Origin: Octopus vulgaris
Lineage: Eukaryota
Length of the DNA stretch: 64,000 bases
Assembly: GCA_951406725.2 (NCBI GenBank)
Contig: OX597818.1
Coordinates: forward strand, 111,414,001-111,478,000
Reading direction: 5' to 3'
Part shown: one piece after another, positions 936-56,625 of the stretch
How positions within the stretch are numbered: the first letter of the stretch is position 1
How the letters are laid out: each line of letters starts with the position of its first letter
Notes under the pieces: model-generated
The model's database searches: none
Seen by the model: the letters and a program-made list of their open reading frames with translations, nothing else
Told to the model about the DNA's origin: nothing
Translations under genes and position numbers: made by a program

Positions 936-978
936 TCCACATTGATAAGGGGCAAATACCCCGAAACTAGTCTGTGGA
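936..978 (+). ncRNA. Minimal type I hammerhead ribozyme, U3-A8 core variant, in PLE-like pLTR fragment
   Basis: TCCACA-TTGATAA-GGGG caaata CCCC-GAAA-CTAG-TC-TGTGGA: stems I and II pair fully, stem III palindromic, GUC cleavage triplet; inverted copy of its 3' half at ~894-913. Confidence 0.8.
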
Positions 979-2429
979 TGTCGTACCAGCAAAAGGAAGC
1001 TGTTGAATTTCTAATTCCTAATACGACATCTGTGTATCATGGACGTATCACAAAACAAACATTCATTTCTAGTTCATCCTAAACACGAAATAATCCATAA
1101 TTAAAAATTGCACTTGTTTTAATTATGGTCCATCCTGACAGATTAATATAATAAAAGACATCCCAACCATGGCATTAACGACTACTTTATGCTATATGTT
1201 CTGTCTTTATATACGACAGTAGGGTATGATTCACGAAACCGTTGCTGCTAAATCTCTCCGGTCAGGCCACCAGATTGGAGCCAATTCGTTCGCTCGCATA
1301 ACACATGTTTCCCCTTCTAAGTGGACTGTGTGAGAATTAAGTGCCTTCTGAAGTATCTAAGCGGAATGTCGACACTATATCTAGTAAGACCACACCATAT
1401 TCACTTGATAAATTGCAGCTGTCTCTCTTTTTCACTTTCTTTCTCTCTCTTCCTCTCACTCTTTCATCTGATCTGCTTCTTTTTTTCACTTTTCCTTTTG
1501 CCGGTTAACTTTCGTTATTGATCGTTCTTATTTAACTTCTTATTTTCTTAAATATTCTTCGCCTGCCGCATAATATTGAGATAAATCTGACATGACATTT
1601 AACCAAAGATAATCAATGAAGAGGGGAAAAAAAATCGATCATGCTAAAAGACAAGGAAAAACCAAATAAACAAAAACAATGAAACTGCTCTGAAAAACCC
1701 TCGTAGAATTTGTCGTCAATAACCAAATTCCAGCCAATCCTGGAATTTAACTCATCGAACAAATATCGAATTGTACTGAATGCCCTTGGAAGAACAGACT
1801 CTTGTTCTGTTTAAGGTGAATGTCTCAGAATTTAGTAAAATTACAAAACAGAACGTTGCTTTCTTATCGTTGTCCTTTGTTCTTCCAGTTTCTTTAGTTT
1901 TTCTTTTCTTGTATTTCCAAAAGCTTCTCTCACTAAATTTCTCACACTATCCTACTATGTTTTACTTGCAGATCTTAAAATACATGAAAAGGACAATAAT
2001 CTTCTTTTTGTTTTTATGTGTGTGTGGGAGTAACTGTGTTTATGAATGTTTTAGTGTAGTTTTCAGCTGTCGTGTCACCACCAACGACATGTCACGCTGA
2101 CTTCCAGATATTCTAATGAAGACACAACTGTGCAGCATTTTAAAAAATGGATTTATCACTTGTTCGATCTGTTTTATAATAGCTATGAAGACACTCGCTG
2201 CTGTTGTTACTGCTGTTTAGCCAGTCGTGATCAAAAGCGTTCCGACAGTGACTGTTGAGCCTTTATGTTTATTATAGGAATACAGTACTATAAAATGTCC
2301 GATGTCCTCTTTTTCTTTCTAAGAAATGATGTGATTTAAGGAAATTTGACTGCTATTTCTAACATGCAGGATAGATATGCAATGGCTTCTTCATCATCTG
2401 GAGTTGATGTGAAGAATAGTGCAACACTA

Positions 2430-2830
2430 TTCTTTTCCACTCTAGGCACAAAGCTCGAAATTTTTGGGGAGGGGTCCGGTCGATTAGATCAACCCCAGTA
2501 TGCAAATGGTACTTATTTAATCGACCCCGAAAGGAAGAAAGGCAAAGTCGACTTCGGCGGAATTTCAACTCAGAATGTAAAGACAGAAGAAATACCTATT
2601 TCTTTACTACCCACAAGGGGCTAAACACAGAGAAGACAAACAAGGACAGACAAACGGATTAAGTCGATTACATCGACTCCAGTGCATAACTGGTACTTAT
2701 TTAATCGATCCCGAAAGGATGAAAGGCAAAGTCGACCTCGGCGGAATTTGAACTCAGAATGTAACAGCAGACGAAATACCGCTAAGCATTTCGCCCGGAA
2801 TGCTAACGATTCTGCCAGCTCGCAGCCTTA
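2430..2830 (-). mobile_element. SINE family B, two units in tandem (younger copy joined to a headless older copy)
   Basis: Block TTTAATCGACCCCGAAAGG...AAAGTCGAC.TCGGCGGAATTT.AACTCAGAATGTAA occurs twice (~2516 and ~2700), each with a different tail. Confidence 0.8.
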
Positions 2831-3135
2831 CAAATAGTGCAACATTATTGACAGAGGAAAGAAGGCAACGGACCAAAAGAGGAGAGAAGTCCCCAAAAAT
2901 AACAGACGTAGATCTTATCTGTTGAAATGATGTAAAGGGTAAATTTCTGCATTAGATAAGATTTTGAGTTTAGATTCTGTTTGTGTTAGGATCAGCTTTA
3001 ACGTTTATACAGTTTGATCTCCGAAATAAATTTGTGTAATATGATAATAGATTAAAAAGAGAAGGATGTGTTTCAAGAGGACTATGACATCATCATTGAA
3101 TTGTGGTACTTATGTGTTTGTGTATATAAGCATAT

Positions 3136-3640
3136 ATCACGCAATCATGATCGACCAGACTGCCGGATGCACTTTGTATCATTTTAGCTTTCAAATGATA
3201 CCACCCCGCTGGTTAGGTGAGCAACCCAAAACCCTCCACTTCCTCATCGGAAGGGTTGACAACATCGCCGGTGTAACCCATTTACAGCTAAGTGGACTGT
3301 AACAACTTCATGCTAAAAAAGTGTTTTGCTCGAAAGTCCCCATCTGGCGGTCGTGAATGCAGTCCCGTAAACACAACGCCCTATGCCTCCTTAGTCTTCT
3401 CTCAGAGTGTGACAAGGTTGGCCCTTTGAAATATAGATACAAGAGAAACAGGAAGAAAGAGCGAGAGAAAGTTGAAGTGAAAGAGTACAGCAGGGTTCAC
3501 CACCACCCGCTGCCATAGCCTTGTGGACCTTTAGGTGTTTTTGCTCAATAAACACTCACAACATCCGATCTGGGAATCGAAACCGCTATCCCACGACCGC
3601 GAGTCCACTGCCCTAACAACTGGGACATTGCGTCTCCACT
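3136..3640 (-). mobile_element. Mosaic of SINE fragments (family D tail and head, A/E-type pieces)
   Basis: 3440-3640 is the reverse complement of the head of the element at 61799; 3136-3230 matches its tail. Confidence 0.65.
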
Positions 3641-53758: not shown

Positions 53759-53799
53759 TATTCTTGACAAGTCATACATTGACGAAAACCGGTTGAATA
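53759..53799 (+). ncRNA. Minimal hammerhead, U3-A8 core, right arm
   Basis: TATTC-TTGACAA-GTCA tacat TGAC-GAAA-ACCGG-TT-GAATA; stems I and II pair fully; AACCGGTT palindrome. Confidence 0.8.
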
Positions 53800-55356
53800 A
53801 ATATATATATTTATATATTTTATCATTTTCTCATTTTATTAAAATTTTATTTCATTTGAGCATTCTGGATTTTTAAAAAAATTTTTCCTTACTTATATAT
53901 ATATATATATATATATGTGTGTGTGTGTGTGCGTGCGTGAATACTATACATATATATATATATATACTTCGAAAGGGATGCGTGGCGTTCAATCAAATAA
54001 TAATATAACTAATATATATATATATATATATATACACACATATACACATGCACACACAAACACACACAGACACACATATATAGGTATAGGACGTCTCCAA
54101 CAGTAAACAATATGAAATACGAAAACAAATGAGTTCAATAGGCAAACAACGAGAGAAACAAGTGGAAAACAGGACAAGTGACGCAAAGAACGACCCTTCA
54201 TTAGTTGTCGGCTGTCTATCTACTCCTCATTTGGAGCATAAATATATGTATGTGTGCGTACGTGTTTGTGTGTGTATATATATATATATATATATATATA
54301 TTTGAGTAGTTGAATGAATTATCTTGTTATGGATAATTCGGTTAACCGATACCTGGGTAGCAAATTCACTCGTCGTTCAACTCCATTCTATCATATATAT
54401 ATATATATATATATATATATATATATATATATATATATATATATATATATATATATACATATGTACATATTTAGATACACTTATACGCACCTGCATATAC
54501 AAAAAAATAATAAATTAGCGAATATGTTTTGTCAAACATAAAACTTAATATAATACTTTTCTTCCAAGGAAACAATTATAGCAGTTAAACAAAAACACTT
54601 ATGATATACTAAGGTATAAATTCTAAACATAAAAAAATTATTGTTTTCAACAGAAACATGGACATTTAGCAGGGGGGAAAAACCGCCGAAACTTAGATAG
54701 AAGTCTACAAAAAGGAACAAAACATTCTATTATAAAGCAATGCTAAAGCTAGAGCCAAAGAAAGCCTTATAAATATGAAACAAAGATAAACAGTTTGAAA
54801 CTAAACTGAAACGTAAAAAAACATGGCAATAGAATTTGCTATCGTCTACCTTGGAACGAAAAATACAAATTAAACTGATAGAATGGGTGAAATAAAAATC
54901 ACCAATGGAAATACATAAAACAATAAAATAAAATGAAGTGAAATGGTTTTTCTTTTGTTATGCTTTCATTTGAAAATGAATATTTCGAATGAAAACCAGT
55001 AGAATTTTCGAAGACCTACTTAAGCGTATTGAAAAAACATATACAGGAATTTGATATCTATTAGAAATTCTATAAACATAAACCCCCCCCTCTCTCTCTC
55101 TCTCTCTCTCTCTCTCTCTCTCTCTCTCTCTCTCTCACATACACACACGCGTGTGTGAGTTTGTGTGTATGTATGTATGTATGTATTTTTGCATGTATGT
55201 ATGTATGTATGTATGTATGTATATATATATATATATATATATATATATATACACATGCCATTTATTTATCCAACACAATACGCACATATATATATATATA
55301 CTTATATATACAAATATATCTGTATATATCTCTTTCCCTCACAATGAATGAACTAA

Positions 55357-55616
55357 CCAATCAATCAATCAATCAATCAATCAATCAATCTCTCTGTCTG
55401 TCTATCTATCTATCTATCTATCTATTTATCTATCTATCTATCTATCTATCTATCTATCTATCTATCTATCTATCTATCTATCTCTCTCTATCTCTCTCTC
55501 TTTCTCTCTCTCTCTCTCTCTATCTATCTATCTATCTATCTATCTATCTATCTATCTATCTATCTATCTATCTATCTATCTATCTATTTATCCATCTGTC
55601 TGTCTGTCTGTCTGTC
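55357..55616. repeat. Compound (TCAA)n/(TATC)n/(TC)n/(TGTC)n microsatellite
   Basis: Direct reading. Confidence 0.9.
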
Positions 55617-56116
55617 ATATCGAGAGAAACCTTACAGTAACATTGAAAACTTTTACCTCTTACAGCCAGTGAGAGAGCTCGGAACATGGTAATTCATCCT
55701 GTTAGAAGTAGCGACCAAATCCCAAATTAGGAACTGCTATAGAAGAATCCTCTAATCGGTCACTGGACTTGCTAGTGATAGCTGCTAATACTACCTCAAC
55801 TCAAACTCTGTCTTATAAAAAATGAGAAAGACGCACTGGATAGTGTAAACCTTGAGAGTTTGTCTCTGAAATGTAAGTGTGATAGTGACTATGTCTATCT
55901 AGGTTTCCAGTTCCCCTGGGTCAGTGCCGATCTGTGCCTACAACAAGAACAACTACAAATAATAAAATTGATTTATCTGAGCACGGAAATTATAAGATTG
56001 TGATTTGTCGAACAAAGAATTTAATTGTCCATTAGTTCTTATGCCTACTAATGAATCTTTTCTCCTGAAGAGAACCTCAGAAACTCGGCGCAAGGTTCAG
56101 AAACGCACCAATATGA

Positions 56117-56625
56117 CCAAGAACTGGAACGGGAAGTGCTGGTTCATCCTCCATAATCTCCAGACTTGGCGCCGTCATATTTTCATCCCTTTCGACCTCT
56201 TTCGAACACTTTGTGCGGTGTATCATTCAATAATGACGTAGAATTGAGGGCTTAGTTGGACGAATTCATTGAGTCAAGACCAGAAGTTTTCTATCGCCGA
56301 GGCATCGGAAAACTTATTGAACGATAGAAGAATATATTATTGATCAATTTGTTGTAGATCTTTTAAAAATAAAGTTCTATATTTAGGAGATGAGGAATTA
56401 TGTACATTATTTACATTATTTACATTTGACGGATATTTGTCCTCATCTTGTATGTTATTAACACAAGACACCTGATGAAGGCTGGAGGGTATACCAGCCG
56501 AAACGTTGTGTTAACAACAAACAAGATGAGGATAAATATCAGTCAAATGTAAATAATGTAGGTTTTTTTTATGTTTAAAATAAATTTGAAAAAACACTCG
56601 TGAATTATTCCTCAACAAAATATAT
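56117..56625 (+). mobile_element. Mariner transposon remnant (transposase C-terminus and probable right end), interrupted by a hairpin insert
   Basis: QELEREVLVHPP*SPDLAPSYFHPFRPLSNTL...FYRRGIGKLIER* matches the mariner YSPDLAPSD region; TIR-like GAATTATTCCTCAACAAAATA-TA at ~56603-56625. Confidence 0.8.
56467..56512 (+). ncRNA. Minimal type I hammerhead, canonical core, inside a hairpin insert (~56387-56560)
   Basis: GACAC-CTGATGA-A-GGCTGG agggtata CCAGCC-GAAA-CG-TT-GTGTT; tail duplicated in inverted orientation upstream. Confidence 0.8.

Follow-up and report, generated by a model that had tools for sequence, protein, structure and literature searches.

Nucleotides 3 and 8 of the hammerhead ribozyme form a Watson-Crick pair only in the tertiary active fold. 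In a 64,000-nt stretch of the Octopus vulgaris genome (contig OX597818.1; hereafter the window), an earlier note had listed 13 hammerhead motifs with C-G, U-A or G-C at these positions. The locus thus raises the question of whether these motifs are genuine hammerheads, how many families stand behind them, and whether the alternative pairs were kept for catalysis.

Hammerhead motifs in the window and their density

All listed 7-mers were confirmed in the window sequence; only the G3-C8 core had been misplaced, at 33801, and lies at 33921-33927 (minus strand). With a strict type I descriptor that permitted all 16 nucleotide pairs at 3/8, seven motifs were found in the window, six of them with a Watson-Crick 3-8 pair (U-A at 942 and 37610; C-G at 23315, 23820 and 56472; G-C at 33927), against 0.83 per shuffle; at a score of 10 or more there were six motifs against 0.125 per shuffle. 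A 400 kb sample gave 19 descriptor motifs versus 0.8 in shuffles, and low-score matches were no commoner than in shuffles. When an extra A was permitted in GAAA, the motif at 53764 and its mirror at 52524 were also found, and all eight intact high-score motifs in the window were Watson-Crick at 3-8; the same was true of 24/24 intact high-score motifs with all 16 pairs permitted. C3-G8 predominates (15 of 16 intact motifs in a blind sample of 400 kb). The window copies at 7274, 36848 and 40936 fail the descriptor, the full fold being kept at the family level.

Twelve of the 13 motifs belong to hammerhead-bearing repeat families, but they are not independent cases, as nine families stand behind them. 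The remaining one is a look-alike:

5460..5516, plus strand: 3' half of a long-helix-II hammerhead family (family comparison)

Other copies of this family lack CTGATGA at the place where it had been read as a core; their true core sits some 100 nt further upstream, in sequence that the truncated copy in the window has lost, and this copy has no helix I either.

By homology, the window holds 15 family copies (the 5460 remnant included) and four A6U copies, about one per 3.5 kb. The proposed density of more than one motif per 5 kb is locally high: 400 kb at fixed round coordinates contained about 40 family copies, or about one per 10 kb, seven of them from one array (32 by homology, in which the 40936 family is undercounted, plus further copies). 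Copies other than C3-G8 number seven in the window and three in the 400 kb.

The variants had been expected to escape CUGANGA-only searches; this was borne out, and Rfam misses them too. Its hammerhead models gave no match at gathering score in the whole window, and none at E<=10 in 880-1030 and 33860-33950. The motifs missed by CUGANGA descriptors and Rfam amount to at least 17,642 + about 9,000 + 3,412 + 2,395 + 768 (family match counts, here and below, are exact-anchor lower bounds). Over the window at E<=10, Rfam returned mostly microsatellite hairpins, and a repeat search was likewise dominated by microsatellites.

Families and their cores

Measured against the type I core (C3 U4 G5 A6 N7 G8 A9 / G12 A13 A14 / A15.1-U16.1 / H17), 23315, 56472, 36848, 40936 and part of the 7274 family conform, and 942, 36553 and 33927 conform with a 3-8 swap. 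Helices I and II with a short or palindromic helix III were found by covariation in the 942 family and by folding in 33927, 53764, 23315 and 56472. The motifs reside in PLE pseudo-LTRs or in tandem retrozyme-like units. Frames with RT and then a C-terminal GIY-YIG, the order that (with CCHH) characterises endonuclease-bearing PLEs, are linked to four hammerhead families, and partial tandem or inverted insertions, a one-sided tail and microsatellite targets match endonuclease-bearing PLEs. The CX2-5CxxC linker before the endonuclease has the form CX4CX2C in both U3-A8 PLEs and a short CX3CX2C in the G3-C8 PLE; the labels Neptune-type and Nematis-like presumably apply, given the linker form and the signatures of these clades.

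The G3-C8 core belongs to a PLE family:

33885..33934, minus strand: minimal type I hammerhead, G3-C8 core 33921-33927 (descriptor, family consensus, folding)
33734..34082, no strand assigned: inverted pair of PLE 3' ends with a one-sided tail, in (TA)n (homology)

The motif has a 7-bp helix I, a bulged G, a 5-bp helix II, an A-U palindrome and a UUU site; its mirror within the inverted pair (core 33956, plus strand) carries G5A. In longer copies elsewhere, an RT thumb, CX3CX2C and GIY-YIG precede the motif by about 1 kb. All copies seen are 5'-truncated, with only the C-terminal part of RT and GIY-YIG, and a full-length element was looked for at three places and not found. The family has 2,395 matches; with the core left free, G3 was present in 100 and C8 in 98 of 100 sampled. 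In contigs of four sequencing runs with four organism labels, 0/15 core positions vary at >=3%, compared with 5/8 loop-2 positions (Fisher p 0.002). A sister PLE (54% protein identity over 135 aa) matches this family in flanks, bulged G and helix II, with one compensatory pair in helix II, and has C3 in 98 and G8 in 100 of 100 (3,412 matches). Since C3-G8 occurs in a sister at 54% identity, the 3-8 swap is traceable. In folding, the G3-C8 double hammerhead lies 3.9 kcal/mol above the best dimer, and G3 is able to pair with U17. Directly 5' of the motif the sequence offers a candidate intron acceptor.

U3-A8 occurs in two Neptune-type PLEs, which are 59% identical in RT and both carry RT and GIY-YIG:

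53759..53799, plus strand: hammerhead-like motif, U3-A8 core 53764-53770, extra A (GAAAA) (descriptor with extra A, folding)
52489..52529, minus strand: mirror of the 53764 motif, core start 52524 (homology, descriptor with extra A)
52344..53916, no strand assigned: inverted insertion of the 3' end of a young Neptune-type PLE (homology)
36547..36592, plus strand: U3-A8 motif, core 36553-36559 (family alignment, folding)

The 53764 motif has an 8-nt palindrome with two possible registers; elsewhere its PLE forms a 4.6-kb unit (99% identical) with RT, a CX4CX2C linker and GIY-YIG. With the core left free, its consensus is U3-A8 in 100/100 of 149 matches, and its predicted double hammerhead, which requires an insertion, lies 2.6 kcal/mol above the best dimer. 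The 36553 motif, in the 3' end (35777-36684) of the second PLE, has a 5-bp helix II, a palindrome and a proximal helix I with U-U mismatches that is very weak in all 17 aligned matches, the window locus included. Its short fold is predicted to be unstable, with a long A-U distal helix possible; the family consensus is U3-A8 in 100/100 of 537 matches.

A third U3-A8 family is retrozyme-like:

936..978, plus strand: type I hammerhead, U3-A8 core 942-948 (descriptor, family alignment, folding)
37604..37646, plus strand: second U3-A8 copy, core 37610 (descriptor, homology, pair changes)

The first is a fragment of a non-coding tandem or inverted unit of about 360 nt (44.6% GC, mostly one or two units, no PLE frame seen alongside) and has a 6-bp helix I, a 4-bp helix II, a palindromic helix III and a GUC site. 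The second, at about 78% identity in a unit spanning about 37545-37880, has compensatory changes in helix I, helix II and the palindrome. Across the family, 94.4% of helix cells are paired and six pairs show double changes; 0-1 of 500 shuffles (which ignore relatedness) paired as highly, and slid controls reached 31-42%. The minimum-energy dimer of the 942 motif is predicted to be a double hammerhead. Between this unit and a C3-G8 tandem unit with a similar helix II, no homology was found beyond 22 bases.

The C3-G8 families include these copies:

23310..23374, plus strand: C3-G8 hammerhead with long helix II (descriptor, folding)
23815..23879, plus strand: C3-G8 hammerhead in the next unit of the same array (descriptor)
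56467..56512, plus strand: minimal C3-G8 hammerhead of a common family, core 56472 (descriptor, homology)
7244..7278, minus strand: minimal C3-G8 hammerhead (7274), helix I decayed in the window copy (family alignment)
36768..36852, minus strand: C3-G8 hammerhead (36848) of an old family with long helix II, decayed in the window copy (family alignment)
40930..40980, plus strand: C3-G8 family copy (40936), one helix I change here (family loci)

The first two lie in a 505-bp tandem repeat (array 22991-24131) whose copies are 100% identical genome-wide, with 33% GC, arrays of up to five or more units and no PLE frame seen alongside. The 40936 family has a 6-bp helix I, a U-U-closed helix II and a 4-bp helix III.

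Larger variant families, with uncompensated A6U, U4C or A9C, had been overlooked:

5882..5917, plus strand: A6U-core minimal hammerhead family copy (homology)
18986..19021, minus strand: A6U family copy (homology)
25708..25743, minus strand: A6U family copy, decayed core (homology)
61212..61247, minus strand: A6U family copy (homology)
33196..33228, minus strand: U4C copy of the 7274 family, previously unlisted (homology)

The A6U family (17,642 matches), linked to a PLE frame at one locus only, is 96-99% fixed at positions 3, 4, 5, 6 and 8 and free at position 7 (43 U, 25 A, 22 C and 10 G of 100). The 7274 family has 12,666 matches, with U4C in 73 of the first 100, and the A9C family is the sister of the G3-C8 PLE, its helix III not palindromic. 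With one fixed core departure each, the A6U, U4C, A9C and GAAAA families are, judged by sequence, hammerhead-like variants and not consensus members.

Variant cores are thus family consensus and not copy-specific, and a Watson-Crick 3-8 pair is kept in all resolved family consensuses. The statement that a change at position 3 is always restored at position 8 is true when families are compared, but copies within a family do not follow it: the 82 copies of the 942 family (U3 in 79, A8 in 80, core left free) include three changes at position 3 and two at position 8, none compensated. Likewise, several families do have a U-A or G-C consensus, but the swaps represent only about three independent events, the two U3-A8 Neptune-type PLEs being 59% identical. 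An avoidance at position 17 of the complement of position 3 was not significant (p 0.058); A17 occurs in 11/16 C3-G8 families versus 0/3 U3-A8 families.

Relation to published hammerheads

The motifs are mostly real and largely of known type. Natural U3-A8 in PLEs has already been published (PMC4209133, PMC3088659), including a Schistosoma PLE variant with about 1,300 matches (PMC4209133). Like the motifs of that paper, those in octopus have a type I layout with a bulge between A9 and helix II and a palindromic or absent helix III, and occur as dispersed single or inverted motifs; cleavage by such minimal PLE hammerheads is weak and takes place in dimers (Cervera and De la Pena 2014, PMC4209133). 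In the text of PMC4209133 as available and in its supplement file 2, which holds no octopus entry, no G3-C8 core was found (0 matches for four G3-C8 7-mers). Its descriptor, with a fixed core, would not pick up the A6U, U4C or A9C families.

Natural core variants in Perreault et al. 2011 (PMC3088659) include U3-A8 covariation, a GAAA insertion (U13a), U-U at the base of helix II, viroid U4C and phage A6C; A6U and G3-C8 are not named among the core variants in its section 8. Those variants are rare single examples, whereas the octopus variants are family consensus with hundreds to more than 17,000 copies. A6C strongly lowers Mg2+ cleavage (PMC7151607; also PMC3088659). In an Anolis PLE hammerhead, engineered C3G/G8C partly restores cleavage, the element protein being required (PMC11167929); that G3-C8 is a laboratory double mutant, whereas the octopus one is a natural consensus with at least 2,395 matches.

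The 505-bp and ~360-nt units resemble metazoan non-LTR retrozymes (PMC7229834; 10.64898/2026.07.22.740005) in that they are tandem units without coding sequence, a few hundred bases long, with less than 45% GC, one type I hammerhead per unit and PLE-like inverted insertions. However, 505 bp exceeds the 150-450 bp quoted for such units, and the 942 family differs by its U3-A8 core, its fold being otherwise of canonical size. In frog retrozymes, one of nine predicted dimers cleaved (10.64898/2026.07.22.740005).

Literature searches found neither a natural G3-C8 nor a natural A6U core, though the variants of Lunse, Weinberg and Breaker (RNA Biol 14:1499) may include G3-C8, A6U or A9C. These are reportedly, by title, small PLE-associated hammerhead variants that cleave as dimers.

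Catalysis, selection and rival explanations

We think it probable that these type I folds in PLE pseudo-LTRs and retrozyme-like units, with cores fixed as family traits, act as slow, assisted ribozymes. The motifs would self-cleave slowly with the help of a dimer or a protein, two motifs of one transcript joining via the palindrome into a double hammerhead, and cleavage would release element RNA from longer transcripts. Selection may act on a few transposing master copies. It would retain G5, the Watson-Crick 3-8 pair, G12-A13-A14 and A15.1-U16.1 while accepting U-A or G-C as the 3-8 pair and one change at position 4, 6 or 9; inserted copies, mostly 5'-truncated inverted ends in microsatellites, would then decay neutrally. 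The fixed core changes likely slow cutting rather than abolish it. The stronger proposal, that the variants are catalytically selected, did not stand as worded: the largest variant families carry uncompensated A6U, U4C and A9C, and catalytic mutants of one PLE ribozyme left insertion in vitro unimpaired, with no read ends at the site (PMC11167929). Young families are uniform through recent descent, and core invariance in them is therefore weak evidence.

The fold might instead be retained for a role other than catalysis (recognition by protein or RT, dimerisation of the RNA, definition of the template end), a reading we doubt without dismissing it; with cleavage dispensable in many families, cores would drift, and a variant core would be the sign of a ribozyme that is weakened or dead. 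The families with the greatest success carry A6U (17,642), U4C (12,666) and A9C (3,412, without a palindrome in helix III), which suits this reading, as do the in vitro insertion results and the lack of hammerheads in Naiad and most Chlamys PLEs (10.1101/2021.04.23.441226); a pair specific to the active fold is nevertheless kept in all resolved consensuses, and G5, G12-A14 and A15.1-U16.1 do not change, in contrast to position 7 and loop 2. Founder accidents, in which a mutated master copy was amplified, 3-8 pairing is partly coincidence and the motif is under no selection, seem improbable: all three swaps end Watson-Crick (about 1 in 64 if double changes were random), U3-A8 is common to two PLEs of such low RT identity, and subfamily changes avoid the core, even if the swaps are so few, families are internally 95-100% identical and single-copy changes go uncompensated. 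Chance matches in AT-rich repeat DNA, which do account for 5460 and the low-score matches, have a negligible claim as a general cause and are ruled out for 12/13 motifs, given that high-score motifs outnumber those in shuffles 20- to 50-fold, and given the family-level folds and the PLE context.

Beyond the slow, assisted ribozymes favoured here, we suggest only tentatively, and as rather unlikely, that the G3-C8 ribozymes (which would be the first of this kind in nature at high copy number, and have a C3-G8 sister family) and the >17,000-copy A6U ribozymes are both active and under selection, possibly helped by the element protein or a different metal ion. If so, the PLEs of this genome would amount to a natural saturation experiment on the hammerhead core: the cores usable in biology would extend far beyond CUGANGA, and each animal genome would hold tens of thousands of uncounted ribozymes. 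PLE hammerheads are nearly universal in these elements, yet poor cutters and seemingly dispensable in vitro. The G3-C8 family with its C3-G8 sister and the A6U family with its free position 7 are ready-made constructs with which selection for the active fold could be told apart from selection for the rate of cleavage.

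Hammerhead motifs in the window and their repeat families

Hammerhead motifs were scanned in the window, which has 35% GC and abundant microsatellites, using a type I descriptor that left positions 3, 7 and 8 unconstrained, with block-wise dinucleotide shuffles as the control. Seven matches were found, six of them Watson-Crick at the tertiary 3-8 pair, against 0.83 per shuffle, and at a score of at least 10 there were 6 against 0.125. In a comparison sample of 40 stretches of 10 kb at round coordinates, the same descriptor gave 25 matches (4.25 shuffled), and 19 at high score (0.8 shuffled; 17 C-G, one G-C and one C-A). 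With a second descriptor, which required a palindromic helix III and made an extra A optional, all intact high-score motifs were paired at 3-8 (8/8 in the window, 16/16 in the sample), and low-score motifs and those with a further core change lay near the shuffle level. No Rfam hammerhead match was obtained in the window. The hammerhead motifs are genuine, and their pair is commonly C3-G8.

The window holds no Penelope-like retroelement (PLE) reading frame of at least 120 codons, so the motifs, named here by core position, were traced to repeat families throughout the 2.8-Gb assembly (227 contigs).

Hammerhead families and other elements of the window
23315 and 23820: C3-G8, units of a 505-bp array, copies identical genome-wide
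56472, 7274, 36848 and 40936: C3-G8 families, the window copies of the last three decayed
33196-33228, minus: 7274-family copy, from its U4C majority subfamily
942 and 37610: U3-A8, one non-coding family, unit about 360 nt, tandem and inverted arrangements
53764 and its mirror: U3-A8, 3' terminus of a young PLE of 4.6 kb whose RT-linker-GIY-YIG frame is open
36553: U3-A8, 3' end of a PLE related to the 53764 PLE (59% identity over 466 aa)
33927, minus: G3-C8, palindromic insertion in (TA)n with a one-sided tail
5882-5917, plus; 18986-19021, 25708-25743 and 61212-61247, minus: A6U copies (partial copy at 15603-15716)
20490-21590, plus: LINE reverse-transcriptase fragment, 366 aa
49007-50945, plus: three restriction-like-endonuclease non-LTR fragments beside (TAA)n runs, which we take to be R4/Dong
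11637-11745: a common SINE-like 3' end, present as an inverted pair that forms a hairpin

The earlier note had described a window-wide hammerhead set; the excess over shuffles and the family-level support confirm that observation in part. The CTGATGA at 5460 does not hold up as a hammerhead core: the real core of its family sits some 100 nt upstream, in the portion truncated away from the window copy. Copies of the 40936 family often share a (TA)n with other PLE ends directly beside them (at loci outside the window, with local coordinates: L141:8800-8870, L200:1266-1350, L138-L140, L147), and many are palindromic with the centre at the core start. At L061:2300-4600, seven units (353-359 bp) that carry a canonical C3-G8 hammerhead form an array, on both strands, which is another retrozyme-like family.

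Swapped 3-8 pairs and other core changes

With the core left unconstrained, the 942 family showed U3 in 79 and A8 in 80 of 82 exact-anchor matches. None of its five single changes at 3 or 8 was compensated, so that the claim of position 8 changing wherever position 3 does fails at the level of copies. In an alignment of 37 copies, which were picked by likeness to 942 and whose relatedness the shuffle test ignores, 94.4% of cells were paired, six pairs had double changes, and U3-A8 was present throughout (37/37). The computed best dimer of the 942 motif is a double hammerhead. One U3-A8 retrozyme copy has an Antennapedia-type homeobox exon (L010:2160-3014) some 1 kb away.

In the 53764 family (149 matches), all of the 100 matches listed had U3-A8 and 99 had GAAAA. 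The 36553 family (537 matches) likewise had U3-A8 in 100/100 of those listed, with a U-run anchor that biases position 3. Helix I of its motif is poor in the proximal part. Internal tandem repeats of about 110 bp lie in the 3' non-coding region of this second Neptune-type PLE (window 35777-36250). At L141:4185-7956, the young Neptune-type PLE carries, upstream of the RT-endonuclease frame, a separate, coiled-coil-like frame of about 370 aa, present at four loci and examined in two, with no Pfam match, whereas a single frame is described for canonical PLEs.

The G3-C8 family (2,395 matches) had G3 in 100, C8 in 98 and C3-G8 in none of the 100 listed; some 1 kb upstream of the motif, its longer copies encode an RT thumb along with a short CX3CX2C linker and GIY-YIG. 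A sister PLE, absent from the window (L222:580-630; also L046 and L092), encodes a protein 54% identical over 135 aa and ends in a C3-G8 motif with a fixed A9C and a non-palindromic helix III (3,412 matches; among 100 listed, C3 98, G8 100, C9 95), yet its helix I closing pair and bulged G are identical to those of the G3-C8 motif, and helix II differs by one compensatory pair. The two states are separated by a double change in homologous motifs. In contigs over the G3-C8 stretch (four runs, four organism labels), none of 15 core positions varied at 3% or more, against five of eight in loop 2 (Fisher p 0.002); downstream, variation affects 23 of about 149 positions, and the core alone is therefore not significantly below background. 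Three of four helix variants led to G-U pairs and one breaks its pair. About three independent swaps are counted: one in a retrozyme, one common to both Neptune-type PLEs, and one G-C.

Families with uncompensated changes had been missing from the earlier note. The minimal A6U motif came to light when the 3' end of a neighbouring PLE frame was traced, and at one locus it sits after a Neptune-type frame. Hand counts over 100 of its 17,642 exact-anchor matches gave U6 96, C3 99, U4 97, G5 97 and G8 96, with position 7 at U 43, A 25, C 22 and G 10. The 7274 family (12,666 matches) has C4 in 73 of the 100 matches listed. The interpretation in the earlier note is supported in part. The swapped pairs do stand as family consensus, but because A6U, U4C and A9C are uncompensated, the swaps make up only one portion of a broader loosening of the core.

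Proposed slow cleavage and its alternatives

It is established that positions 3 and 8 are paired when the fold is active (PMC3088659), that the minimal hammerheads of PLE pseudo-LTRs show weak cleavage as dimers (PMC4209133), and that C3G/G8C gives partial rescue of a PLE hammerhead dependent on the element's protein (PMC11167929). With some reserve, we favour slow but selected cleavage: master copies would be under selection for a core that can fold and cuts slowly, the palindrome would pair two motifs of a tandem transcript, unit-length RNA would be released by cleavage, and inserted copies would decay. Against this, for 33927, 53764 and 36553 the active dimer is, by computation, less stable than other forms, and G3 can pair with U17 in the G3-C8 motif, resembling the C3-G17 trap (PMC3884650); A6C is slow in Mg2+, although good in Mn2+ (PMC7151607), and eight of nine predicted frog retrozymes were reported without cleavage (10.64898/2026.07.22.740005).

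Insertion in vitro persists after inactivation of the protein-dependent PLE hammerhead (PMC11167929); that the fold is kept for a structural role, with catalysis dispensable, we consider possible but rather unlikely. All these families keep G5, the 3-8 pair, G12-A14 and A15.1-U16.1 and leave position 7 free, as is expected of a hammerhead fold. That the variants are a founder accident seems very improbable.

U3-A8 has been published in nature and in PLEs (PMC4209133, PMC3088659). In the portions available of the literature found, G3-C8 appears as an engineered mutant only (PMC11167929, PMC3884650; further literature: PMC7229834, PMC6765202, PMC6155905, 10.1101/2021.04.23.441226), and no natural case emerged from searches and one supplement of PMC4209133, the most relevant PLE-variant paper lying outside their coverage. 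The literature search gave no confirmed paper on A6U in hammerheads, the term occurring in one twister paper. It is doubtful that the G3-C8 and A6U families are both active and unreported.

Longer G3-C8 copies have a branch-point-like and pyrimidine-rich tract upstream of the motif (L198:1530-1550, minus), whose final CAG stands some 20 nt ahead of helix I. It is a candidate intron end, similar to the one described beside the Penelope hammerhead (PMC4209133). A low-complexity tandem tract, which may be an assembly artefact, lies between two G3-C8 ends at L219:1200-3150. The sister PLE locus also holds a 354-aa transposase frame within (TA)n (L222:1350-2410), presumably Mariner-type.
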